Shown: positions 1-59,107 of the stretch, piece after piece
Layout of the letters: the number at the start of each line of letters is the position of its first letter
How positions within the stretch are numbered: the stretch's first letter is position 1
NCBI GenBank assembly: GCA_041650775.1
Contig: JBAZKO010000002.1
Coordinates: forward strand, 27,930 to 91,929
DNA length: 64,000 bases
From: Patescibacteria group bacterium
GTDB taxonomy: Bacteria > Patescibacteriota > Patescibacteriia > Patescibacteriales > UBA12465
Direction: 5' to 3'
The notes under the pieces: model-generated
Told to the model about the DNA's origin: nothing
The model's input: only the letters and a program-made list of their open reading frames with translations
Database searches by the model: none
Position numbers and translations under genes: made by a program

Positions 1-464
1 ACGAAGGATCGGAATCCCAAGCTTTTCCTAATTTCGGCGTGGAAAGAACCGGCGCCCCCATCCAATCTTTCGCCCGAATAAGCAACCAACCGATAGTCAC
101 TCGCGAACAAATTTACGCGCCGACCGTCTTGATAATCCAAGACGCAACCTTAATCGGTACGGTTGATGTTTTCAAAGGAACGGACAAAAATACAAAAATT
201 ATCATTAACTCTCCTAGAAATAACTGGCCGAATTTAAAATTAAAATCCCACCAGCTTTTCTTTTCGCCCGCCACGGAGATCGCTTTAAGAATTTTAGGAA
301 AAAATATCGTCAACACCGTAATCCTAGGCGCTTTCGCGAAATATACCGGTTTGGTTTCCCCGGCCTCGTTAAAAAAAGCCATCCGGGAAAAATTCGCCGG
401 CAAAGGCGAGGAAATAATCAAAAAAAATATTGCGGCCGTGGAAGAAGCTTACGGGATCGATTAA
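1..464 (+). CDS. porG: 2-oxoacid (pyruvate):ferredoxin oxidoreductase, gamma subunit; 5' end cut by window edge
   Basis: Frame 3 is open from nt 3 (EGSESQAFPNFGVERTGAPIQSFARIS...). This matches the conserved gamma-subunit core (F-G-x-E-R-x-G-A-P...R-I-S). The listed ORF 39..464 is only the part after an internal GTG. The delta, alpha and beta subunit genes follow directly. Confidence 0.85.
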   Translation, partial: EGSESQAFPNFGVERTGAPIQSFARISNQPIVTREQIYAPTVLIIQDATLIGTVDVFKGTDKNTKIIINSPRNNWPNLKLKSHQLFFSPATEIALRILGKNIVNTVILGAFAKYTGLVSPASLKKAIREKFAGKGEEIIKKNIAAVEEAYGID

Positions 465-469
465 ACTTT

Positions 470-754
470 ATGAAAAAAAACGCCAAAAAAATAAAGCTGA
501 TAACCGAAGCCGGGACTTCCCTGGCTAATAAAACCGGGCCTTGGCGGACACACCGGCCGGAAACCGATTACGAAGTCTGTATCGGCTGTTCTTTATGCTC
601 TAAAATCTGTCCGGAGGGTTGTATTGAAATGGTTAGCTGTCCGGAACGCGGCGGCAAACTGAAACCGGCGACCGATTATGATTACTGCAAGGGCTGTGCC
701 TTGTGCGTTCGGGAATGTCCGGTCAAAGCGATTAAAATGAAAAAAGATTATTAA
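470..754 (+). CDS. porD: 2-oxoacid:ferredoxin oxidoreductase, delta subunit (2x[4Fe-4S] ferredoxin)
   Basis: 94 aa with two CxxCxxCxxxCP motifs (CIGCSLCSKICP, CKGCALCVRECP). It starts 5 nt after porG. Confidence 0.85.
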   Translation: MKKNAKKIKLITEAGTSLANKTGPWRTHRPETDYEVCIGCSLCSKICPEGCIEMVSCPERGGKLKPATDYDYCKGCALCVRECPVKAIKMKKDY

Positions 755-783
755 ATCAACCGGCTAATAAAAGCGCGTCAATT

Positions 784-1965
784 ATGAAAAAGCAAAAACA
801 AATACTGGAAGGTTCGCAGGCCATCGCCTTAACCGTCAAGAATATCAATCCGGCGGTGGTTTCCGCCTATCCAATAACGCCGCAAACGCATATTGTCGAA
901 GATCTGGCGAAAATCAAGGCGGATGGAGAGGCTTCATACGAATATGTCCGGGCGGAAAGCGAATTCGCGGCCGCGTCCATTGTTTTGGGAGCGAGCGCGA
1001 CCGGTGTTCGGGTTTATAGCGCGACCAGTTCCCAGGGACTTTTACTGATGACCGAGGTTCTTTTTAATATCGCCGGGATGCGCCTGCCGGTCGTTATGAC
1101 CTGTGCTAATCGCTCCGTCTCGGCGCCGATAAATATCTGGAACGACCAGAGCGATGTGATGAGTATCCGCGACGCCGGCTGGGTTCAGTTATTCGCCGCC
1201 AATCATCAGGAAGCGGTCGACAGTCATATCCTGGCTTACAAAATTGCGGAAAAATTAAAATTGCCGGTGATGGTTAACGTTGACGGCTTCATCCTAACCC
1301 ATTCCTATGAACCGGTAGTAATTCCCGAAGCCGCTTTGATTAAAAAATATCTGTCGGATTACCGGCCGGAAACCGGAACCTATCTCGATCCAGAGAAACC
1401 CGTGACTCTCGGCGCTTTTTTCACGCCGGAATACTATTTGGAAACCCGAGAAGCGTTACATAATGATTTATTAAAAAGCCTAGCGATCATAAAAAAGGAA
1501 TATCGAGTGTGGCAAAAAATTTCCGGAATTAAAAATGGCGGCCGGGCGACAATCGATAACGGCTTAGTGGAATATTACGGTCCTAAAAAACCGGCGACAA
1601 TCTTAATCGCGCTCGGTTCGGTCGCCGGCACGATTTTAGAAACTATCAAGAATAACCAATTGGCCGGAAAAGTTGGACTCCTAAAAATAAAAGTTTATCG
1701 CCCTTTTCCCAGTGAAGAAATAATTAAAATAATCGGCCGAGTGAAGAATATCGCTGTCATCGAAAAAGCCATCAGTCTCGGGCAGGCTGGTCCGCTTTAC
1801 GGCGATTTAAAAACTGCCCTGAACGCCAACCTGTCCGGCCGGTTGAACATCAAAAATTATATCGTCGGCCTGGGCGGACGGGACGTCACGGAAAAAATGC
1901 TGGCCGATATAATCAAAGACGTTCCCCGAAAAAACAAGATTATAAAATTCCGCGGAAAAATATAA
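784..1965 (+). CDS. porA: 2-oxoacid:ferredoxin oxidoreductase, alpha subunit
   Basis: 393 aa. The N-terminus GSQAIALTVKNINPAVVSAYPITPQTHIVE and the later RAESEFAAAS..GAS..G.R..SATSSQGL are typical of POR/VOR alpha subunits. Operon context supports the call. Confidence 0.9.
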   Translation: MKKQKQILEGSQAIALTVKNINPAVVSAYPITPQTHIVEDLAKIKADGEASYEYVRAESEFAAASIVLGASATGVRVYSATSSQGLLLMTEVLFNIAGMRLPVVMTCANRSVSAPINIWNDQSDVMSIRDAGWVQLFAANHQEAVDSHILAYKIAEKLKLPVMVNVDGFILTHSYEPVVIPEAALIKKYLSDYRPETGTYLDPEKPVTLGAFFTPEYYLETREALHNDLLKSLAIIKKEYRVWQKISGIKNGGRATIDNGLVEYYGPKKPATILIALGSVAGTILETIKNNQLAGKVGLLKIKVYRPFPSEEIIKIIGRVKNIAVIEKAISLGQAGPLYGDLKTALNANLSGRLNIKNYIVGLGGRDVTEKMLADIIKDVPRKNKIIKFRGKI

Positions 1966-1977
1966 AGCGAAAAAAAT

Positions 1978-2862
1978 ATGAAGCTGTTTAACTTTTCGAA
2001 AATCGCCTTCGTCTTAATCTGCGTGTTCCAAATCGGCGGAGCTGTTGTTTTAAGCGGCGCGCCGACGCCCGTTTTCGCGGCCGAAAAGACCTTCGAAGCT
2101 CTAGAATTTACGCCTCAGGTTAAACTTCCCAATACCGACTTCGACGTCACCTCCCTGCCGACCGGCTCTTATAACCCCCAAACCGGCGCGATGACCAGCG
2201 ATTTACTAGCCAAATATATTCAAGCTTTTTACAGTTACGGCCTGGCGGTCGTGGGAATCTTGGCGGCGATAATCTTAATGGCCGGCGGCGTCCTGTGGCT
2301 CACTTCAGCCGGTAACGATTCCAAAATCGCCCAGGCTAAGGAGCTGATTACTGGTAGTATCGTCGGTTCCATCATCCTTTTCGGCTCCTGGATAATTTTA
2401 AATACCGTTAATCCGGATCTGTTGAAATTAAAAACGATTGACACGACGCTAATAGCAAAAACGCCGGTGGACTCCTGTTGCGAATATGATATTCAAACTG
2501 CTAAACAAACCATTTCCAAATACGAATGCGAAAAGGCCAAGGGAAAATATTATGCGAGAGCCAAATTGACAACCAAGACCGGCGGCCAGAGTTTCTGCGC
2601 CGATAGCGGCTGTTGCCGGTGTAAAATCGGCGGTACTTTTCGCACTCTCTTTATATCCAATACTAATTGCGCCGACGAAAACGACGGCAAAGGCAAAGTT
2701 CTACCGGAAACCTGCGAAGCCGCGTGTGCCACCGCCGGCAAAATATCCGGTGATTTAAGCTGGGAAACTTTATATGTCTGGGGGCAAGTATGCGATGCTG
2801 ACGGAGAATGTTCCCCGCGCGTCGGCGGCAAAGACTATGGCGGCGATGGCAATGATTTTTAA
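1978..2862 (+). CDS. exported membrane protein: signal peptide, TrbC/VirB2-like (T4SS-pilin-like) two-helix module, Cys-rich C-terminal domain
   Basis: N-terminal signal peptide (MKLFNFSKIAFVLICVFQIGGAVVLSGAPTPVFAAE). Residues ~79-153 form two TM helices around a short polar loop (GILAAIILMAGGVLWLTSAGNDSKIAQAKELITGSIVGSIILFGSWIIL). This pattern recalls the pilin-like family common in CPR genomes; that is family recognition from memory, not a search. The C-terminal ~130 aa contain 12 Cys. The gene sits 12 nt after porA and 4 nt before porB. Confidence 0.6.
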   Translation: MKLFNFSKIAFVLICVFQIGGAVVLSGAPTPVFAAEKTFEALEFTPQVKLPNTDFDVTSLPTGSYNPQTGAMTSDLLAKYIQAFYSYGLAVVGILAAIILMAGGVLWLTSAGNDSKIAQAKELITGSIVGSIILFGSWIILNTVNPDLLKLKTIDTTLIAKTPVDSCCEYDIQTAKQTISKYECEKAKGKYYARAKLTTKTGGQSFCADSGCCRCKIGGTFRTLFISNTNCADENDGKGKVLPETCEAACATAGKISGDLSWETLYVWGQVCDADGECSPRVGGKDYGGDGNDF

Positions 2863-2866
2863 ATAT

Positions 2867-3748
2867 ATGACACAAAACACTAAAACAAAATTTCTTTCTC
2901 CCGGACACAACGCCTGCGCCGGTTGCGGACAACTGTCCGCCGCGCAGTCCGTCATGCGGGGATTAAATAAAGATGTAATCATTGCTAACGCCACCGGTTG
3001 TCTAGAAGTGACGACGACCGCTTATCCGCAAAGCGCCTGGGGTCTTCCTTGGATTCATTCTTTGTTTGAAAACGCCGCCGCGGCCGCAACCGGCATTCGC
3101 ACCGCCCTTGACGCGAAGGGCGATAAGAAGACCAAAGTCGTCGTTCAAGCTGGCGACGGCGGAACCTACGATATCGGAATCGGACTGGTAAGCGGCCTAT
3201 GGGAACGCGGCGAAAATGTTTTATATATCTGTTATGATACCGAAGCTTATTCTAATACCGGTTATCAGGCTTCGGGCGCTACCCCTTACGGCGCTTCGAC
3301 TACGACCGCGCCCAGTGGCCGAGAGTCAATCGGTTCCACGCAAAGAAAAAAAGATATGCTGGCGATTGCTTTGGCGCACGGTCTTAAATATGTCGCGCAG
3401 ACAACTGCCGGTTTTCCCGATGATATTACTACCAAAGTAAAAAAAGCGTTAACCGTCGATGGTCCGAGCTATATCCAAATCCTCTGTCCCTGTATCCCTT
3501 ACTGGAAAATAAACAACGATGAGGCGGTAACGATGGGAAAACTGGCCGTCAAAACAGGATTATATCCGTTGTTGGAATATGTCGACGGACTTTTAACGGC
3601 TTCCAGCCTGGCCGTCGGCGCGACTAGCGAACCGGTCGAAGAATATCTGAAAGGACAAGGGCGCTTTAAGCATCTGAAACCGGAAACAATCGCGCTTATC
3701 CAAAAGCTGGCGGATGAGAACGCTAAAAAATATCGAATACAAAAATAA
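2867..3748 (+). CDS. porB: 2-oxoacid:ferredoxin oxidoreductase, beta subunit (TPP-binding)
   Basis: Contains the GHNACAGCG Cys motif and the TPP-binding GDGGTYDIG...Y.NTGYQ motif. I moved the start from the listed 2774 to ATG 2867. Region 2774-2866 overlaps the upstream gene in another frame, and MTQNTKTKFLSPGHNACAGCG is a normal PorB N-terminus. Confidence 0.9.
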   Translation: MTQNTKTKFLSPGHNACAGCGQLSAAQSVMRGLNKDVIIANATGCLEVTTTAYPQSAWGLPWIHSLFENAAAAATGIRTALDAKGDKKTKVVVQAGDGGTYDIGIGLVSGLWERGENVLYICYDTEAYSNTGYQASGATPYGASTTTAPSGRESIGSTQRKKDMLAIALAHGLKYVAQTTAGFPDDITTKVKKALTVDGPSYIQILCPCIPYWKINNDEAVTMGKLAVKTGLYPLLEYVDGLLTASSLAVGATSEPVEEYLKGQGRFKHLKPETIALIQKLADENAKKYRIQK

Positions 3749-4809
3749 TGTTTAAAAAAATTCTCTTAGCTTCAATTCTCTTATCTATTTTCTCCTGGGT
3801 CATCCCGACTCAGGCGGCAGAAACTTGTTATTGGCAAAAAGCAAACAAAGAAACCGGAACCGCGAATTACACCGCCGTTTGTAAAACAGGTTATTATATG
3901 ATTAGTGGCGGTCTGCCATATAATACCGGTTATCCCGGGAAGGAAGACAAATGTCTCGCTCAGAACATAAGCAAACCCGGAGATGGTGCTATTTATGCCT
4001 GTTGCTGTGGTACTGAAGCCGTTTCTCCCAGTGCCTCCGCTCCGGCGCCAAAATTTACTATTCCGGAATTTCAAATTCCCATTCCCACTATTGAACTGAG
4101 CGACCCTAAATGTACCGTCAACGACGACGGCAGTTATTATTGCGAGGTTCCTTGGATTGGAGAATATATCATCGGTCTTTATAATTACGGTCTTAGTATC
4201 GCCGGCATTTTAGCGGCGATTATGCTTATGGCCGGAGGAATTCTCTGGCTTATTTCCGGCGGCGACGCCTCCAAAGTCACTCAGGCCAAAGAACTGATAA
4301 TCGGCAGTGTTACTGGGCTTATCATTCTAGCTTCTTCCTATATTTTATTGACGCAAATTAATCCCGACCTGACGACCTTAAAGCCTATTTCTCTGGGAAC
4401 TATCAAAGCTAAAGATTACGAACCGGTATCGACCGAAGGGAATCCCGATAATAGCCAGGATTGCAATCAGTGTTCGACTCTGCCCACGCAAATACCGGCG
4501 AAAAATAGTCGCCAACTTAATCGCGATCTGGTCGCTAAAATAATTGAGGCCTGGGGAAACAGTTGCCAGGGTGGCTGTCTGGCTTGGCGGGTAACCGAAG
4601 CTTACCCGGCGACCAGCAAACATAATAGCACTTGCCATTATAACGGCCTGTGCGCCGATGTCGCTCTTACCGGCGATCAAAATTGCGCCGATGTTGCCCG
4701 ATTAACTACTATTTTACAAAACGCCGGTCTATCCGTCTTAAACGAATATACCGGCTGTAACGGCGTCAAAACCGCTAACACCACGGGCGGCCATCTCCAC
4801 GTCAAATAA
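3748..4809 (+). CDS. exported membrane protein: Cys-rich N-domain, TrbC/VirB2-like two-helix module, C-terminal LAS/M15-like zinc peptidase motif
   Basis: Signal peptide MFKKILLASILLSIFSWVIPTQAAE. Residues 139-213 (GILAAIMLMAGGILWLISGGDASKVTQAKELIIGSVTGLIILASSYILL) are paralogous to the 1978..2862 product, about 45 of 73 identical by eye. The C-terminus has H297-YNGLCA-D304 and H349-L-H351. The ATG overlaps the porB stop (TAATG at 3746-3750). Confidence 0.6.
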   Translation: MFKKILLASILLSIFSWVIPTQAAETCYWQKANKETGTANYTAVCKTGYYMISGGLPYNTGYPGKEDKCLAQNISKPGDGAIYACCCGTEAVSPSASAPAPKFTIPEFQIPIPTIELSDPKCTVNDDGSYYCEVPWIGEYIIGLYNYGLSIAGILAAIMLMAGGILWLISGGDASKVTQAKELIIGSVTGLIILASSYILLTQINPDLTTLKPISLGTIKAKDYEPVSTEGNPDNSQDCNQCSTLPTQIPAKNSRQLNRDLVAKIIEAWGNSCQGGCLAWRVTEAYPATSKHNSTCHYNGLCADVALTGDQNCADVARLTTILQNAGLSVLNEYTGCNGVKTANTTGGHLHVK

Positions 4810-9154: not shown

Positions 9155-10174
9155 TTACCCGTAAAAATTATCCCCTAAAGCCTTTAATACTTGGAGATAT
9201 AAATCTTCCACGATTTTCTCCTGTTCGGCTCCGGTTTTGATATAATGATCCAATCCAGGTGCGGAATTGATTTCAATAATCCAATACTTTTTTGGCGGCA
9301 TGTTTATTTCACCGTCGACCATAAGGTCTACGCCGCACAAACGAAGCCCCATATCCCTGGTGAGTTTAACGGCTATTTCTTTAAACTTCGGATGAACTGT
9401 TTTGGTAACATCAAGGGAATCGCCGCCGCTAGAAAGATTGGCATTATCGAGTAAAAAAATTTTCTTCCCGAGGGGTAAGACGGATTTTAAATGTAATCCC
9501 TGCCGTTTCAGATTTTGAGAGACGCGCCAATCGTCAATTGCTATTTTCGCCGGACGATCTAAAATAATGAAAGCACGCAATTTTTTCTTGATAAGATTCT
9601 CCACGCGGCTGATTCCATCGCCAATAATATTAAATGGAACCCTTTGATAAGCAGAAATAACCTTGTCATCCAGAACGACAATACGATAATCATTGCCGCG
9701 AATAAATTTCTGCACCAGGGCGACTTTATCTTCGGAAAAAACGGAACGCAAAGATTTATAGAACTCGCGTTTGTTATAAACCTTATGGAAACTTTTCCCC
9801 TGACTACCGCTATTCGGTTTAACGACTACCGGGAAACCGATCTTCACGGCGTAATGATAAGCGGCTTCCAGACCCTTCTTTGATCCTATCGCTTTGCTCC
9901 AGCGAGGTGAGAAGAAAGCCTTACCCTTAATCGTCGGATAAGCCATTCGCTTCATAAAAAAATTAGCGTAATCTTTATCTTTGGCGATTTCCGAAGCACC
10001 TAAGGTATTAAGATCGAGACTAGAATAACGAAAATACCTTTTCCGACCGTTAGCGAATATTATCTGACCGACAAACCCCCATCTCGGCTCAATTATAACC
10101 TCAGCGCCTATTTTAGGCGCTATTTTCTTTAACAACTCTCCTAAAATTGGGGTGATTATTTTATTTTTTTTCAT
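9155..10174 (-). CDS. ATP-grasp family ligase (cyanophycin-synthetase-N-terminal/RimK-like; substrate unknown)
   Basis: 339 aa. ATP-grasp hallmarks are VVVKPNSGSQGKSF, RIVVLDDKV, and CGVDLMV...WIIEINSAPGL. Confidence 0.6.
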   Translation of the reverse strand: MKKNKIITPILGELLKKIAPKIGAEVIIEPRWGFVGQIIFANGRKRYFRYSSLDLNTLGASEIAKDKDYANFFMKRMAYPTIKGKAFFSPRWSKAIGSKKGLEAAYHYAVKIGFPVVVKPNSGSQGKSFHKVYNKREFYKSLRSVFSEDKVALVQKFIRGNDYRIVVLDDKVISAYQRVPFNIIGDGISRVENLIKKKLRAFIILDRPAKIAIDDWRVSQNLKRQGLHLKSVLPLGKKIFLLDNANLSSGGDSLDVTKTVHPKFKEIAVKLTRDMGLRLCGVDLMVDGEINMPPKKYWIIEINSAPGLDHYIKTGAEQEKIVEDLYLQVLKALGDNFYG

Positions 10175-10244: not shown

Positions 10245-10964
10245 TCAACCCCGCCAGCCCTTTGTTCTTCCTGAAAATTTAAATATCGGCCCGTACATAT
10301 CATCCTGAATATTGATTTTTAGTTCCCTTTTATCCACTTTATTGGAAAAAACAACCGGTGCCTGTGCAATTATCGCCAAGGGGAGCCGCTCGTTGCCCTC
10401 CCCCATGCAAACAACCGCGGCGGCGGCCAGACTATCAACCACATTCACTCGAGAAAATTTAAAGGGACGTTTAAATATATCTCGCTCGCCACGATAATCT
10501 TTTAATCCCCGGAAACCGGCATAACCCAAAGCTACTCCAGTTATACCGGCTCTTAGCGGCAAACAACGACTATCCGTGATTATCACTCCTAGATTATTCA
10601 ATTTATTTTTAGTTCTGAAATATTCCCTTAGCCGCGCCGCTACTTTAAAGCTGTCCCGCGGCAAAAGAATAATTTTTCCGTCCGCGTTACTCTCGTCAAC
10701 CCCGGCGTTAGCCATTACCATGCCGTCTTTAATGGTCAAATAAACATGCTTGGTTGGTAAGACAAAGTCGCTCTCTGCTTCTATTATTTTTTTCTTAATC
10801 AAGGGATTTGTTCCGTCCGCTACTCTTCCCTCAGCCAAAGCGACGATTTTTGAAGTAACGACTAAAATACTGCCCTCTTTCAAAGATGATAAATAATGTT
10901 CCATAAAATCTTCCAAATTTTCGCTAAGCTTGAATATTTTAGTTTTGATCGTTTTTATTTCCAT
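10245..10964 (-). CDS. CofE-like (F420-0:gamma-glutamyl ligase family) protein
   Basis: 239 aa. LVVTSKIVALAEGRV, NAGVDESNA, GVIITDSRCLPLRAGITGVALGYAGF are the conserved blocks of the F420_ligase fold as I recall them. Confidence 0.65.
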   Translation of the reverse strand: MEIKTIKTKIFKLSENLEDFMEHYLSSLKEGSILVVTSKIVALAEGRVADGTNPLIKKKIIEAESDFVLPTKHVYLTIKDGMVMANAGVDESNADGKIILLPRDSFKVAARLREYFRTKNKLNNLGVIITDSRCLPLRAGITGVALGYAGFRGLKDYRGERDIFKRPFKFSRVNVVDSLAAAAVVCMGEGNERLPLAIIAQAPVVFSNKVDKRELKINIQDDMYGPIFKFSGRTKGWRG

Positions 10965-13292: not shown

Positions 13293-15281
13293 TCAATTAA
13301 GAACTATCCGGACATCGCCGGCTCGGACTCCTTTTTCGAAAACGAATAACGGATTAATATCCAGTTCGGAAATCTCCGGATGCTCGCCAGCCAGACGGGA
13401 CAGATTAACTAAAATTTTAGCTAAGGATTTAAAATCATATTTTTTCTGACCGCGCGCTCCGTTTAAAATCGGAAAAATTTTCAGATTTTTGATAAGCGCC
13501 AAAGCTTCGTCGGAATTCAAATCGCCGGCCGCCAGTTTAAAATCCTTGAAGACTTCCGTATAAATCCCTCCCTGGCCGACCATCATAATCGGGCCGAAAG
13601 AAGCGTCTCGTTTAAAACCTAGAATAATTTCCTGAAATTTAGCGGCCTGTTCCTGAACGATCAGATAATTCAGCGGCCGGGCGAGAGCGGGGCGATTTTT
13701 CGCCTGCAAGCGCGACGCGGCGGCGGACAATTCCGCTTCCGTCTTTAAATTTACGATTACCCCTCCGGTATCGGACTTATGGAGAAAATCCGGACCGGTA
13801 ATTTTCAGGACAACCGGATATTTGTAAGCCGGAAGCGCCGCGGACGCGTAGCGGACGGTTTTGACCGCCGGTATCTTATATTTTTCCAGTAATTTCAAAG
13901 AAGCCAGATAATCACCGCTTTGAATTTTATTTTTAGCCGGTTTAAACGACGGCTGGTAAGGCCGCAGATTCTTAATCATTATCTTATAAGTAATCAACTT
14001 CTTGAGACTGCGCACCGCTTCTTCTGGATAATCAAAAGTCGGGATATTGTTTTTAGTCAGGAGTTCCCGCGCCGGCGCCACTTCTTTCCCGCCTACGAAA
14101 CTGGTCAAAATCAGCTTATGGGGATATTTTTTAGACACGGCAATTATCGCCTGAGCGGTCTTTAAAGGTTCGGTTGAAGTCTGCGGCGTCAAAAGAACCA
14201 ATAAATTATTAACTTTTTTATCCGCCAAAGTTTTTCGCAAAGCTTCTTCATAGCGCGCCGCGTCCGCATCGCCCAATAAGTCCTGGCTTCGACCGAAAGG
14301 CAAACCTTGGCGGCTGATTTCATCGACCGTTAAAACCGCAACCCCACCGGCGTTAGTAAGCACATATAATTCCTGCGGTCCGCGATTCTGCCAGGATTCT
14401 TTTCGAAACAGCAACAATAGATTAAATAATTCTTCCAGATTTTCCAGCCAAATCGCGCCTGCCCGTTCCAATCCGGTTTTAACGGCGGCGGCCGATCCCG
14501 CCATAGAACCGGTATGCGACAAAGCGAGACGGCCGCCGGCCGCGCTCGTTCCGGCTTTCAGGACGGCGACTGGTTTGCGTTTCGCCAGACGTGAAACCAA
14601 ACGCATAAAATCCCGACCGTCTTTAATTTCTTCCAAATAAGCGACAATCAAATCAATCCTCTTATCAGCCTCCAAGTGTTTAATAATCTCATTTTCCGAC
14701 AGGACGACTTTATTCCCCAAACTGATAAAATAACCGAAGTTAAAATTTTTAATCCGTAACCAATCCAGAGAGGCCGCCCCGATGGCGCCCGATTGCGACA
14801 ATAAAGCGCTATTGCCCGTTTCCGTATCGGCGGCCGCGAAAGTGGCGTTCAATTTATGCCAAGTATTGATCAGACCCAGACAATTCGGGCCGAGAATATT
14901 AAGTTCATATTTTTTAGCGATGGCCGCGATTTCTTCTTCCAACTCTTTTCCGGCCGCGCCTGATTCCTTGAAACCGGCGGTAATGATAACGATATTTTTA
15001 ATACCATTGGCCGCGCATTTTTTTATTTCGGCCGGCACAAAAGGCGCGGGAATGGCGATGACCGCCAAAAGCGAAGCTACTGACGCGGACGGCAGATCAT
15101 TCAGACTGGCATAAGCTTTCAAACCGGCGATAATTTTTTCCTTAAGATTAATCGGATAAATTTTCCCTTTAAATCCACCTTTGATAATATTATCCAAAAT
15201 TTGCCGGCCGAGTTTTTCCGGACTGTTGGAAGCGCCGACAACCGCCACCGAACGCGGGTTAAAAAAATAATTTAAAGACAT
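13293..15281 (-). CDS. acetyl-CoA synthetase (ADP-forming), fused alpha/beta (acetate--CoA ligase, NDP-forming)
   Basis: 662 aa. CoA-binding N-terminus FNPRSVAVVGASNSPEKLG, SQSGAIG and LSHTGSMAGS (phosphohistidine loop), and a C-terminal ATP-grasp region. Confidence 0.85.
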   Translation of the reverse strand: MSLNYFFNPRSVAVVGASNSPEKLGRQILDNIIKGGFKGKIYPINLKEKIIAGLKAYASLNDLPSASVASLLAVIAIPAPFVPAEIKKCAANGIKNIVIITAGFKESGAAGKELEEEIAAIAKKYELNILGPNCLGLINTWHKLNATFAAADTETGNSALLSQSGAIGAASLDWLRIKNFNFGYFISLGNKVVLSENEIIKHLEADKRIDLIVAYLEEIKDGRDFMRLVSRLAKRKPVAVLKAGTSAAGGRLALSHTGSMAGSAAAVKTGLERAGAIWLENLEELFNLLLLFRKESWQNRGPQELYVLTNAGGVAVLTVDEISRQGLPFGRSQDLLGDADAARYEEALRKTLADKKVNNLLVLLTPQTSTEPLKTAQAIIAVSKKYPHKLILTSFVGGKEVAPARELLTKNNIPTFDYPEEAVRSLKKLITYKIMIKNLRPYQPSFKPAKNKIQSGDYLASLKLLEKYKIPAVKTVRYASAALPAYKYPVVLKITGPDFLHKSDTGGVIVNLKTEAELSAAASRLQAKNRPALARPLNYLIVQEQAAKFQEIILGFKRDASFGPIMMVGQGGIYTEVFKDFKLAAGDLNSDEALALIKNLKIFPILNGARGQKKYDFKSLAKILVNLSRLAGEHPEISELDINPLFVFEKGVRAGDVRIVLN

Positions 15282-39714: not shown

Positions 39715-41049
39715 GTGGAAACAGGTTTATTAAGCCTTAAATTCTTACATTTATTGGCGCAGATTCTACCCCGATTATTCCGGATTATTTCCGGATTTTT
39801 TAGTTTACTATTTAAAGGTCTTTTTTCTAAAATATTAGTAAAAATATACTATAATTACTTTCGTTTGAGAAAAAAGGGCTTATCAGGAAAAAATATCGGC
39901 GGTTTGGTAATTAACCAATGCCTCTATCTTTTTATCTTTATCCTTATCGGCTTCCTGTTTTTTTCCAATCTAACCAGCCAAAATAAAACCAGCGCCCTAG
40001 AGACCAGAATCTCCAAGACAGTAATGGCCAGCCTAGTTCCGGCGGAATTTGGCAGTCTCCCGGACGAAGAATTGATTGAAGAAACGGCGACGCCGGGAAA
40101 TATTTTGACCGCCGGCCAAGAAAAATATCTGGACAGCTCCTGCACTTTAGATAAACAAAGCGGCCTGATTACGGAAGAAAACACCGAGACGGAAGAATTT
40201 ATTTCTTTTAGCAACGAGGGCGACTCCGTTTTTAAACCGCGCTCGACGACCAGCGGCAACGCCGGCGATGTCGTCCCGCAACGCACGGAAATCAGCTATT
40301 ATACCGTTCAAAATGGCGATACTATCAGCACTATCGCCCGACGTTTTGGTCTGACCGTTAATACTGTTCTGTGGGCCAATAATTTAACGGCTTTCAGCCT
40401 GATTCGGCCGGGAGACAGCTTGACTATCCTGCCTTATAGCGGAATCATTTACACCGTTAAAACCGGCGACAACTTAAGCAAGATAGCGAATAAATACGGA
40501 ATAGACGGCGATAAGATTGCAAGTTGCAATGATTTAAGCGCCGGTTTGAAGGCCGGACAAAAAATTATCTTGCCGGGAGCGAAAAAGATTACCGAGGCAA
40601 CCGCAGTCGCCAAAACCAGCAACAATTATACCGGTTTGTCAGCCATTCGCGATTTGATAAAAGCGCCGGCGGCGAAAACCAGCGGTAATAAAATGTCCTG
40701 GCCGACGGTTGGTTACCGAATCACCCAATATTTCTCTTGGCGGCATAACGGCGTCGATATCGGAAACAAAATCGGAACGGCTATTTATGCCGCCGATTCC
40801 GGCGTCGTAGAAATCGCCCAAGGCGGCTGGAACGGCGGTTACGGCAATACGATTGTCATTAACCACGGCGGCGGCAAAAAAACCCGCTATGGACATCTTT
40901 CTAAACTTTTTGTTAAAGTGGGAGATGAGGTGGGGAAAGGAGAAAATATCGGCGCGATGGGTTCGACCGGACGTTCCACCGGGCCGCATCTGCATTTCGA
41001 AGTATTGATTAACGGAACAAGATATAATCCTCTTAATTACGTAAAATAA
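39715..41049 (+). CDS. LysM-domain M23 (lysostaphin-type) peptidoglycan endopeptidase
   Basis: N-terminal TM region. Two LysM repeats ([30 protein letters not shown]; [29 protein letters not shown]). M23 motifs HNGVDI and [15 protein letters not shown]. The exact start is uncertain; the listed ORF begins at a GTG. Confidence 0.85.
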
Positions 41050-41306: not shown

Positions 41307-41380
41307 GGGCCCTTAGCTCAGCTGGCTAGAGCGCCTGCTTTGCAAGCAGGAAGTCATCGGTTCAAATCCGATAGGGTCCA
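41307..41380 (+). tRNA. tRNA-Ala (UGC)
   Basis: Hand-folded cloverleaf. Acceptor gggccct/agggtcc with G3:U70. Anticodon stem cctgc/gcagg with loop tttgcaa. T-arm atcgg-ttcaaat-ccgat. No encoded CCA. Confidence 0.95.
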
Positions 41381-58728: not shown

Positions 58729-58802
58729 GGGCAATTAGCTCAGTTGGTTAGAGCGCAACACTGATAATGTTGAGGTCGGAGGTTCGAATCCTCCATTGCC
58801 CA
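58729..58802 (+). tRNA. tRNA-Ile (GAU)
   Basis: Hand-folded. Acceptor gggcaat/attgccc. Anticodon stem caaca/tgttg with loop ctgataa. T-arm ggagg-ttcgaat-cctcc. No encoded CCA. Confidence 0.95.
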
Positions 58803-58812
58803 CTTTGATTAT

Positions 58813-58885
58813 AGCGGGGTAGAGCAGTTGGCAGCTCGCTAGGCCCATAACCTAGAGGTCGTCGGTTCGAGTCCGACCCCCGCAA
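58813..58885 (+). tRNA. tRNA-Met (CAU), initiator type
   Basis: Close to E. coli tRNA-fMet as I recall it (GCGGGGU.GAGCAG...GCUCG...GGUCGUCGGUUC.A.UCCG.CCCCCGCAA). It has an A11:U24 pair, a 1:72 mismatch (A1/A72) and anticodon loop cccataa. No encoded CCA. Confidence 0.85.
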
Positions 58886-58902
58886 CATTAACAATTAAAT
58901 AT

Positions 58903-58974
58903 GCCTCGGTAGCTCAGTGGTAGAGCAAAGGACTGAAAATCCTTGTGTCGTCAGTTCAATTCTGACCCGGGGCA
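58903..58974 (+). tRNA. tRNA-Phe (GAA)
   Basis: Hand-folded. Acceptor gcctcgg/ccggggc. Anticodon stem aagga/tcctt with loop ctgaaaa. T-arm gtcag-ttcaatt-ctgac. Confidence 0.95.
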
Positions 58975-59036
58975 CTTATAGACAAAAAATGAGCCCATGC
59001 TATATTTATTATTGGGTTTATTTTTTTAGGAAGAAG

Positions 59037-59107
59037 CGGGGCGTCGTATACCGGTAGTACGCATGCTTTGGGAGCATGTTGACTGGGTTCAATTCCCAGC
59101 GCCCCGA
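59037..59107 (+). tRNA. tRNA-Pro (UGG)
   Basis: Hand-folded. Acceptor cggggcg/cgccccg (C1:G72). Anticodon stem catgc/gcatg with loop tttggga. T-arm ctggg-ttcaatt-cccag. 4-nt variable loop. Confidence 0.85.

Follow-up and report, generated by a model that had tools for sequence, protein, structure and literature searches.

Fusion of a VirB2-like pilin hairpin to a predicted Hedgehog/DD-peptidase-like domain in a large family of Patescibacteria proteins

Physical contact with host cells is indispensable to Patescibacteria. Their VirB2-like pilins carry the PF18895 hairpin and are encoded by divergent genes that stand in tandem or one non-pilin gene apart, in arrays some of which adjoin virB4 and dnaA (PMC12102498; PMC10633639). 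Epibiotic growth requires their unusual type IV secretion system (T4SS) with its pilin arrays (PMC10633639), and the majority of Patescibacteria genomes with VirB2 lack a recognisable VirB1 (PMC12102498). The pilins are treated as small subunits in both accounts (Quinonero-Coronel et al. 2025, PMC12102498; Wang et al. 2023, PMC10633639), and no C-terminal enzymatic domain on a pilin is described in the text and supplements of these papers that were searched. In the Tn-seq tables of Wang et al. 2023 (PMC10633639) one protein of the T4SS cluster of Ca. Southlakia epibionticum, SEML1_0007, is scored as essential; structure-based annotation assigns it a C-terminal ECOD 'Hedgehog/DD-peptidase' domain (PMC10633639 supplement). 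T4SS-associated wall hydrolases (VirB1, PrgK, TraG of pIP501) cleave peptidoglycan locally for a type IV secretion apparatus, and VirB1-type enzymes are lytic transglycosylases or CHAP amidases that occur as separate soluble or single-anchor proteins.

We know of no demonstrated peptidase substrate for Hedgehog itself. Hedgehog-like domains in bacteria are taken to be M15A peptidoglycan peptidases (PMC6027127, PMC8052667); the BacHh proteins, presumed peptidoglycan peptidases from about a dozen known bacteria (Rhizobium, Bradyrhizobium, Mesorhizobium), share >50% identity with ShhN, retain its Ca2+ site and begin with a three-TM region (Roelink 2018, PMC6027127; PMC8052667). In these proteins a C-terminal Hh/DD-peptidase domain is part of a larger membrane protein and lies outside the membrane, as is predicted for the one analysed here. 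However, the present family is far more divergent from ShhN and much larger, and its domain sits on a T4SS_pilin hairpin. A literature search turned up no account of a pilin fused to a Hedgehog or M15 domain, in line with the original prediction, in which the architecture was not recognised as a described one. It recurs throughout a large family, as set out below.

The window (the whole stretch of DNA analysed, 64 kb) contains near its start a gene whose 353-aa product is identical to NCBI MFA5109141.1, 'MAG: pilin [Patescibacteria group bacterium]'; in the databases the proteins of this family are named just 'pilin' or 'hypothetical protein'. The original prediction had placed a LAS-type zinc-peptidase domain at 4510-4809 of this gene, fused to a pilin-like membrane anchor. 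The open reading frame and the C-terminus that it gave (...SKHNSTCH(297)YNGLCAD(304)VAL...TTGGH(349)LH(351)VK-stop, with H297-x6-D304 and H349-x-H351) agree exactly with the translation. The domain is indeed C-terminal, but it begins earlier, at about aa 236 (nt ~4453), where it opens with a conserved CxxC (C239, C242); the protein stops two residues past H351 and thus carries no Hint/Hog autoprocessing domain. The anchor is recognised by Pfam (PF18895 T4SS_pilin, E 2.2e-6, 28.1 bits against a cut-off of 26.6 bits), and hydropathy resolves two hydrophobic helices (TM1, 141-170; TM2, 182-202) joined by the basic loop GGDASKVTQAKE and followed by an INPDL motif. The N-terminal ectodomain differs in length between relatives. 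A 353-aa 'pilin' with two ectodomains may be too bulky to polymerise in the manner of VirB2. Coordinates of all features are collected in Table 1.

Table 1. Features of the pilin-Hedgehog gene and of the operon that it closes (positions in the window).
Feature	Position	Strand	Basis or remark
porG	39-464	+	pyruvate:ferredoxin oxidoreductase
porD	470-754	+	pyruvate:ferredoxin oxidoreductase
porA	784-1965	+	pyruvate:ferredoxin oxidoreductase
Partner VirB2-like pilin gene, 294 aa	1978..2862	+	same operon; Cys-rich C-terminal region, without Hedgehog-like domain
porB, probably	2867-3748	+	pyruvate:ferredoxin oxidoreductase
Pilin-Hedgehog gene, whole	3748..4809	+	signal peptide, Cys-rich N-terminal ectodomain, VirB2-like two-helix hairpin, linker, C-terminal Hedgehog/DD-peptidase-like domain
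Predicted Sec signal peptide, aa 1-24	3748..3819	+	hydropathy; cleavage site, between MFKKILLASILLSIFSWVIPTQA and A, inferred
N-terminal ectodomain, aa 25-135, 8 Cys	3820..4152	+	no family match in Pfam/NCBIfam
T4SS_pilin (VirB2-like) hairpin, aa 141-201	4168..4350	+	Pfam PF18895, hydropathy, family pilin HMM
Linker from TM2 to C-terminal domain, aa 203-235	4354..4452	+	low conservation; column occupancy and conservation
Hedgehog/DD-peptidase-fold (LAS) domain, aa 236-353 (118 residues)	4453..4806	+	profile, hhalign, AF2, Foldseek
E284 in 'RVTEAY' motif	4597..4599	+	aligns with Shh E127; kept in 149/152 relatives
H292-x4-H297-x6-D304 (HNSTCHYNGLCAD)	4621..4659	+	alignment, profile, hhalign, Cys co-occurrence
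H292 codon	4621-4623	+	
H297 codon	4636-4638	+	
D304 codon	4657-4659	+	
E333, putative general base, equivalent to Shh E177	4744..4746	+	hmmsearch and hhalign; 150/150
H349-L-H351, last beta-strand	4792..4800	+	strand position, conservation
H349 codon	4792-4794	+	
H351 codon	4798-4800	+	

The product is probably a Sec-exported membrane protein held by the VirB2-like hairpin. Its C-terminal domain is predicted to be extracytoplasmic, as originally proposed, because of the signal peptide, the basic-loop hairpin, the even numbers of Cys residues and the co-occurring Cys pairs. Within the domain C296 and C302 co-occur across the family, and disulfides C296-C302 and C313-C337 are likely.

Searches with the sequence of the single protein give little purchase on the C-terminal region. 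With the tail, searches of Pfam, NCBIfam and the PDB (phmmer) return noise only (paramyxovirus HN matches at E ~1 were dismissed as chance); hmmscan of the protein gives no match to HH_signal (PF01085) at E <= 10 and none to the M15 families in Pfam or NCBIfam, and an AF2 model from single sequence reaches a pLDDT of 39.5. The absence of single-sequence matches and the poor model would be expected if the histidine motif had arisen by chance in a tail that is no domain, a reading that is refuted and hardly credible in view of 550 homologous clusters, invariant motif residues, a confident model once the alignment is supplied, and significant profile and fold matches. An exhaustive HMMER search with the domain (~236-353), which was previously unannotated, yields these 550 clusters at 50% identity; a word-indexed homologue search finds one relative from the domain sequence by itself and ten from the alignment, all ten unnamed or 'hypothetical'. 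Genome loci were retrieved with a 10-sequence alignment, and all of them (18/18) are Patescibacteria MAGs or syntenic with them. No homologues were found in phage and plasmid collections by tblastn, or in IMG/VR with two narrow patterns.

When the family profile is searched against the PDB (hmmsearch), the sole matches are Hedgehog N-domains (Shh, 2.4e-7; Ihh, 1.4e-6; Dhh, 6e-5; fly Hh, 2e-3), and no M15 chain appears at E <= 10. Profile-profile comparison by hhalign gives 92.8% probability (E 3.9e-7) and pairs E284/H292/H297/D304/E333 with Shh E127/H135/H141/D148/E177 (Shh numbering after PMC6027127 and PMC8052667). The Pfam HH_signal model is matched by 13/63 domain sequences at E <= 1 (best 1.7e-5) and by 3/146 full-length proteins at E <= 0.01; M15_3, M15_4 and VanY are each touched by 1/63 relatives, at E 0.06-0.11. 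The homology that had been expected to M15 families runs instead via Hedgehog, whose N-domains (ShhN, IhhN, DhhN; PF01085) are the closest solved relatives both by profile and by fold (TM ~0.69).

The fold prediction points the same way. Supplied with the alignment, AF2 returns a model of the C-terminal domain with a pLDDT of 94.3 and a pTM of 0.88, which has the central antiparallel sheet with helices on one face that characterises the LAS fold and superposes on solved members; strand 303-307 contains D304 and the final strand, 350-352, contains H351, an arrangement like that of LAS enzymes. The top 38 Foldseek matches in the PDB are all Hedgehog N-domains (probability 1.0, TM 0.62-0.70, rmsd 3.2-3.7), followed by VanXYc (4oak), LdcB (4mph), MepA (1tzp) and Ply500 (2vo9) at E 0.03-0.15; in BFVD the model finds weak matches to phage M15 peptidases. 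On the strength of model and profiles together, aa 236-353 is assigned the fold of a Hedgehog/DD-peptidase (LAS) domain, and the LAS assignment of the original prediction is upheld.

The protein contains four His residues only (292, 297, 349, 351), all in its final 62 residues, and three of them belong to H297-x6-D304 and H349-x-H351. The pattern H-x6-D-x(20-80)-H-x-H occurs in 69 of 200,000 shuffles of the same protein (~3.5e-4). This rarity, together with conservation across 152 aligned relatives, argues that the motif is not chance: D304 is kept in 152/152, H297 in 151/152, H292 in 152/152 and E333 in 150/150, and the H-x-H pair in fewer (H351 in 122/150, H349 in 118/150). The combination taken to mark LAS membership, H-x(3-6)-D plus H-x-H conserved in homologues, is thus found here. 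H297 and D304 would be Zn ligands equivalent to Shh H141 and D148, and H292, which corresponds to Shh H135 by hhalign, is one of the two stacking His residues as defined in PMC8052667. A 12-residue insertion between the Glu and H-x-H, absent from Hedgehog, breaks the sequence alignment, and it is therefore by strand position that H351 may be identified as the third Zn ligand (Shh H183) and H349 as a stacking His (Shh H181). HMMER does pair the family's GHLH with the His-tag of 4c4m, but this is an artefact, the true Shh H-I-H being printed as an insertion; the assignment accordingly rests on strand position and not on that alignment. So assigned, the domain appears to carry the complete LAS active-site set, comprising its Zn ligands, a catalytic Glu and two stacking histidines.

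Family and Hedgehog N-domain share the motif RVTE-x7-H-x4/5-HY-x-G-x2-xD ... AG-x5-E ... H-x-H at ~22% identity. They differ in that the family domain has extra disulfides, is bacterial, is fused to a pilin hairpin, and has neither the N-terminal Ptch-binding/lipidated peptide nor the C-terminal Hint domain. It also lacks the Ca2+ site: of the Shh centre (E90, E91, D96, E127, D130, D132) only E127 has an equivalent, E284, since by hhalign D130 aligns with P287 and D132 with T289, and the upstream Ca2+ triad is not alignable. With the M15/M74 wall peptidases (VanXYc, LdcB, Ply500, MepA) the family shares the superfold and the H-x6-D ... H zinc site, but it has no sequence-level PDB match among them. 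In M15B/C enzymes a conserved Arg in an 'SGYR'-type motif binds the substrate carboxylate. The equivalent stretch is V-T-E-A-Y-P-A in this protein and VTEAYPP in the family consensus, without Arg, and substrate specificity is therefore not transferable from M15.

Conservation of the site also bears on whether the domain is an enzyme. In one alternative it is a non-catalytic module whose zinc cleft serves as a 'pseudo-active site' that binds a host-surface glycan, peptide or protein, which would make the protein a pilin-borne adhesin. Among solved structures its nearest relatives are signalling ligands with a cleft for partners such as Hhip and Ptch (PMC6027127), Patescibacteria pilin arrays are highly variable, which fits surface recognition (PMC12102498), and ~40% of the family has HxS or NxH in place of H-x-H, with one His lost; catalysis may therefore not be universal. 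However, the full set E284, H292, H297, D304, E333, H349 and H351 is kept in 88/152 relatives, this protein among them; the invariant E333 and H292 would be superfluous for binding alone; and fly Hedgehog, a pure ligand, has lost these residues (PMC6027127). A purely adhesive role is considered rather unlikely.

The pilin hairpin accompanies the domain in 120/146 representatives by Pfam T4SS_pilin and in 137/152 by a pilin HMM made for the family, and fusion is thus the rule for a large Patescibacteria family and not a one-off. Stand-alone copies of the domain with a simple N-terminal hydrophobic segment, taken as an anchor, exist as a minority; of the extra domains seen in the family, one member has Glucosaminidase and one has 3D. 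TrbC-type pilins (RP4 TrbC) have C-terminal extensions that are removed in maturation. By analogy the domain might be cut from its hairpin during pilin maturation, and either be released as a soluble enzyme or act in cis as a maturation protease; the occurrence of versions without pilin, and a poorly conserved linker directly after the conserved INPDL motif, are in keeping with this. The linker nevertheless contains no conserved cleavage motif, and the domain always forms the very C-terminus, no processing module coming after it, so that release appears distinctly improbable.

The reading preferred here, at a probability of roughly 0.6, is that the product is a LAS-type peptidoglycan peptidase tethered to the surface by a VirB2-like hairpin. 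Because the domain is real and is carried by hundreds of related pilins of ultrasmall bacteria, these cells probably display a wall-cutting enzyme on a secretion-system pilin scaffold. At the cell surface the C-terminal domain would most likely act as a zinc peptidase on the stem peptides or cross-links of peptidoglycan. It would thereby clear a way through the wall for the type IV secretion/pilus apparatus of Patescibacteria, or work alongside that apparatus; the wall could belong to the cell itself or to a host cell in contact with it. Counting against this reading are the single-sequence hmmscan without M15 or HH_signal matches, the replaced 'SGYR'-type Arg, the loss of one H-x-H histidine in part of the family, and the fact that Hedgehog is not known to have a peptidase substrate. 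The proposed job is that of VirB1-type hydrolases, which are not homologous to this family and are not fused to a pilin.

Genomic context bears on the link to secretion. A por operon (39..3748) is interleaved with two pilin genes, of which the fusion gene is the operon's last, its ATG overlapping the stop of porB (TAATG); unlike the described arrays, then, the hairpin bears a 118-aa peptidase-like domain and the genes lie in a por operon. The same setting recurs in eight related loci (L001-L008); the gene of P0101, from another lineage, lies in a ribosomal-protein operon and that of L016 after nrdAB. Neither VirB4 nor any other T4SS gene is found within the 64-kb window. The orthologous fusions of L017 (Saccharibacteria) and of L018 (Parcubacteria) are each clustered with a VirB4-like ATPase near dnaA, and in L013 a Peptidase_M23 gene lies directly upstream of the fusion gene, a layout shared by L009, L011 and L012. 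By annotation SEML1_0007 is likened to the pilin-Hedgehog proteins, with its place in a T4SS cluster and its Hedgehog/DD-peptidase C-terminus. Two members of ~1100 aa, P0101 and P0127, were considered as its orthologues; P0101 has both pilin hairpin and domain, and its link to SEML1_0007 is unproven because its gene belongs to a ribosomal-protein operon instead of a T4SS cluster. The por and ribosomal-protein settings, and a window free of T4SS genes, are at odds with a T4SS-linked reading; the VirB4 clusters of L017 and L018 favour it.

These core-operon settings (por, ribosomal proteins, nrdAB) and the lack of T4SS genes in the window would suit a housekeeping enzyme of wall maturation, in which the hairpin is a mere anchor, unpolymerised and unrelated to T4SS, and the domain serves to trim the peptidoglycan of the growing cell itself; the organism does build its own wall, Mur ligases and MurJ being present. 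However, a generic anchor would not be expected to be one pilin-type hairpin in 137/152 members, the simple-anchor copies are the minority, and L017 and L018 have the gene within a VirB4 cluster. We are doubtful of a housekeeping role. A more far-reaching form of the peptidase reading, put forward only tentatively and unlikely on present evidence, is that the pilus or T4SS pilin platform is itself the wall-cutting tool: peptidase-bearing VirB2-like subunits would assemble at or along the filament, the hairpin polymerising as in a pilus, and would digest host peptidoglycan at the point of contact, replacing the missing VirB1 and opening the conduit needed for episymbiosis.

If a pilin-borne zinc peptidase is indeed what these genes encode, it would supply the wall-hydrolase activity that is missing with VirB1. 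Pilin-Hedgehog proteins thus offer a concrete, testable candidate for how Patescibacteria breach the wall, whether their own or the host's. The family is apparently undescribed, forms a very large bacterial group, and has animal Hedgehog ligands as its nearest solved relatives; its domain merits a family model of its own. With catalytic residues kept and the calcium site absent, it provides comparative material on two debated questions, whether the zinc site of Hedgehog is a real peptidase and what the origin of the fold is, and, should the pilin platform prove to be the cutting tool, Patescibacteria would have in this family a deep bacterial reservoir for the fold of Hedgehog ligands.

The protein considered here (pilin-Hh; see table) ends, as the original prediction had stated, in a zinc-ligand motif, the ORF listing and its translation giving ...SKHNSTCH297YNGLCAD304VAL...TTGGH349LH351VK-stop. 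The protein contains four histidines only (292, 297, 349 and 351), all within its final 62 residues, and shuffling its sequence 200,000 times reproduced the composite zinc pattern 69 times. Single-sequence searches with the tail gave no credible match in Pfam, NCBIfam or the PDB, and the M15-family match that had been anticipated was thus not obtained from Pfam or NCBIfam in this way; predicted without an alignment, the tail folded poorly (pLDDT 39.5), and a word-indexed homologue search returned one relative, a fragment of the same architecture. An exhaustive HMMER search using the tail and this relative as query found 550 cluster representatives at E <= 1e-3 (100 of them at <= 1e-10), with matches nearly always at the very C-terminus of 250-500-aa proteins.

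Sixty-three trimmed domains were combined into a profile (A3); among all PDB sequences it matched only Hedgehog N-terminal domains (Shh, 2.4e-7; Ihh, 1.4e-6; Dhh, 6e-5; fly Hh, 2e-3), with no chain of M15, VanX or VanY among the matches even when E was allowed to reach 10. Alignment of A3 with an Shh fragment by hhalign gave 92.8% probability (E 3.9e-7). Pfam HH_signal was matched by 13 of the 63 members (best 1.7e-5), and M15_4, VanY and M15_3 by one member each, weakly (E 0.06-0.11). With the alignment supplied, AlphaFold2 produced a model of pLDDT 94.3 and pTM 0.88. The structural comparison called for earlier could then be made: the first 38 PDB chains returned by Foldseek are Hedgehog N-domains (probability 1.0, TM 0.62-0.70, rmsd 3.2-3.7 A over ~120 aligned columns), followed by VanXYc, LdcB, MepA and Ply500 at E 0.03-0.15. 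A structure search of BFVD gave solely weak matches, to phage M15-type peptidases. Because of the A3 profile, hhalign and AlphaFold2/Foldseek results, the proposed LAS fold stands as correct; its nearest known kin are Hedgehog domains, not M15 enzymes. A chance motif in the tail is refuted by the 550 homologous clusters, the invariant residues, the high-confidence model and the Hedgehog profile and fold matches.

The hhalign alignment pairs 'WRVTEAYPATSKHNS-TCHYNGLCADV' of the window with a 27-letter Shh stretch, and 'AGLS-VLNEY' with Shh 'AGFDWVYYES'. With Shh residues numbered as in the mouse protein (PMC6027127, PMC8052667), E284 corresponds to E127, H292 to H135, H297 to H141, D304 to D148 and E333 to E177. 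A 12-residue insertion separates E333 from the H-x-H and interrupts the sequence alignment; the probable equivalence of H351 to Shh H183 (a ligand) and of H349 to H181 (the stacking His) therefore rests on the position of the last beta-strand, at 350-352 in the model. The HMMER pairing of the family G-H-L-H with the His-tag of PDB 4c4m was rejected as an alignment artefact, the genuine Shh H-I-H being printed as an insertion.

Across 152 domains aligned with MAFFT, C239, C242, W280, T283, P287, P288, C296, G300, C302 and G327 are invariant or nearly so, and E284 (149/152), H292 (152/152), H297 (151/152), D304 (152/152) and E333 (150/150) are almost universally kept. H349 and H351 occur in 118 and 122 of 150; the final motif is HxH in 90 members, HxS ('HFSVY') in 28 and [N/S/C/D/A]xH in 32, with at least one of its two histidines retained in every complete member. 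The full set of all seven residues is found in 88 of the 152, pilin-Hh included, which tells against a non-catalytic adhesin, an unlikely reading. C296 and C302 are both present in 130 members and both missing from 21 (one discordant); C313 with C337 and C239 with C242 also co-occur strongly, a pattern that fits disulfide bonding in an exported domain. Pilin-Hh gains one more Cys pair from a CQGGC insertion, specific to its lineage, in the loop that precedes W280 (window 4564-4578, aa 273-277).

Unlike Hedgehog and bacterial Hedgehog-like proteins (BacHh), pilin-Hh does not conserve the calcium site: D130 and D132 are replaced by P287 and T289, and E284 (window 4597-4599), aligned with the Ca2+ ligand E127, is the sole remainder. 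The Hint domain is absent; that the C-terminal domain is cleaved off or self-processing is quite improbable. The domain also lacks the M15 arginine motif (that of M15B/C), and does not reach the curated cut-offs of either HH_signal or the M15 families. It belongs to the Hedgehog/DD-peptidase (LAS) superfold, within which it is best regarded as a new family.

The predicted pilin-like anchor was recovered as Pfam T4SS_pilin (PF18895) at aa 141-201 (28.1 bits against a cut-off of 26.6). Hydropathy indicates a signal peptide (1-24) and hydrophobic helices at 141-170 and 182-202 separated by a basic loop, GGDASKVTQAKE. If the positive-inside rule applies and the topology resembles that of VirB2, the two regions flanking the hairpin, N-terminal (aa 25-135) and C-terminal, each with 8 Cys, would lie outside the membrane. 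NCBI records the protein as MFA5109141.1, 'MAG: pilin [Patescibacteria group bacterium]'; other family members are 'hypothetical protein' or unnamed. T4SS_pilin is matched in 120 of 146 family representatives and TrbC/VirB2 in 6, and a family-specific pilin HMM detects the hairpin in 137 of 152; the 15 others comprise 13 short fragments or stand-alone copies (<= 209 aa) and two proteins of ~350 aa. The hairpin-then-domain order is retained even in members of 500-1100 aa. T4SS-associated wall hydrolases and Hedgehog-like bacterial peptidases are already known; the novelty lies in a Hedgehog-like domain joined covalently to VirB2-like pilins, in a large Patescibacteria family. The fusion was not found described in the searchable literature, in keeping with the earlier remark that the architecture was unfamiliar.

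A one-genome-per-species scan gave 18 loci, 12 titled as Patescibacteria, Parcubacteria, Moraniibacteriota, Doudnabacteria or Saccharibacteria MAGs, three merely 'bacterium' and four 'uncultured Gammaproteobacteria' (L005, L006, L007, L008). The last four are probably mislabelled bins, since they show exact synteny with the window and, where the contig extends to lepA (L005, L006, L008), LepA is 78-84% identical to the window's. Searches of phage and plasmid collections by tblastn, and of IMG/VR with two narrow patterns, gave no homologues.

Gene order in the window is porG, porD, porA, pilin (1978-2862), porB, pilin-Hh, tightly packed, with convergent rnhA, recJ, lepA and murJ downstream; two VirB2-like pilin genes are thus interleaved with porA and porB of a four-subunit pyruvate:ferredoxin oxidoreductase (PFOR) operon (39-4809). 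Among related loci L001-L008 the full order is conserved in seven and, in the eighth, which ends at a contig edge, from porB onward; two of the related por loci carry a third pilin gene. In the partner pilin (294 aa), the Cys-rich C-terminal ~140 aa match no family, the sole hit being CEMIP_X (E 0.12). As listed, porB (2774-3748) overlaps this pilin by 89 nt; its true start is likely Met32 at 2867, 4 nt past the pilin stop. The TAA that ends porB runs into the ATG of pilin-Hh at 3748 (TAATG), an arrangement suggestive of translational coupling.

Coordinates of pilin-Hh and of other features in the window
Feature	Coordinates	Strand	Remarks
pilin-Hh	3748..4809	+	353 aa
RimK-like ATP-grasp protein	9155-10174		
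CofE-like F420-0:gamma-glutamyl ligase homologue	10245-10964		
ADP-forming acetyl-CoA synthetase-type protein	13293-15281		CoA_binding, Succ_CoA_lig, ATP-grasp_5; near PFOR operon
LysM-LysM-Peptidase_M23 protein	39715-41049		separate gene
Isolated tRNA gene	41307-41380		
Four-tRNA gene cluster	58729-59107		

The acetyl-CoA synthetase-type gene is consistent with fermentative ATP generation, and M23 represents the other branch of LAS enzymes. Elsewhere, family members lie after nrdAB (L016, and L014 with the same layout) or in a ribosomal-protein operon (L020-L022; member P0101), which suggests that these genes hitch-hike on highly expressed core operons. L013 (3347-6255) contains in order a Peptidase_M23 gene, the fusion and a stand-alone Hedgehog-like protein (~175 aa, N-terminal hydrophobic segment), a layout shared by L009, L011 and L012 that resembles a small group of wall-enzyme genes in which the Hedgehog-like domain has been duplicated. 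No T4SS machinery genes occur within the 64-kb window; a housekeeping wall enzyme, the hairpin being a mere anchor, is nevertheless improbable. A VirB4-like ATPase (TraG P-loop/AAA_10) accompanies the fusion in a conserved cluster near dnaA and dnaN in both L017 (Saccharibacteria) and L018 (Parcubacteria).

With the fold, the homology, the full conserved catalytic set, the regular attachment to a VirB2-like hairpin and, in some lineages, the VirB4 linkage all observed, an active surface-tethered wall peptidase associated with a pilin/T4SS system is given a probability of roughly 60%. In such a peptidase, Sec export and insertion of the hairpin would display the Hedgehog-like domain outside the membrane, where H297, D304 and H351 would bind Zn2+, E333 would activate water, and H292 and H349 would stabilise the transition state; by analogy with M15/M74 enzymes and BacHh, regarded as M15A peptidoglycan peptidases (PMC6027127, PMC8052667), the substrate would be a peptide bond in peptidoglycan, of either the cell itself or its host. 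VirB1 is missing from most Patescibacteria genomes having VirB2 (PMC12102498), and SEML1_0007, a gene in the T4SS cluster of Ca. Southlakia epibionticum that adjoins VirB4 and a lysozyme/CHAP protein, is essential per Tn-seq tables and carries, by structure-based annotation, a C-terminal 'Hedgehog/DD-peptidase' domain (PMC10633639 supplements). The mostly missing VirB1 and the essential SEML1_0007 make a T4SS-linked role in opening the wall attractive, by analogy, for the pilin-Hedgehog family.
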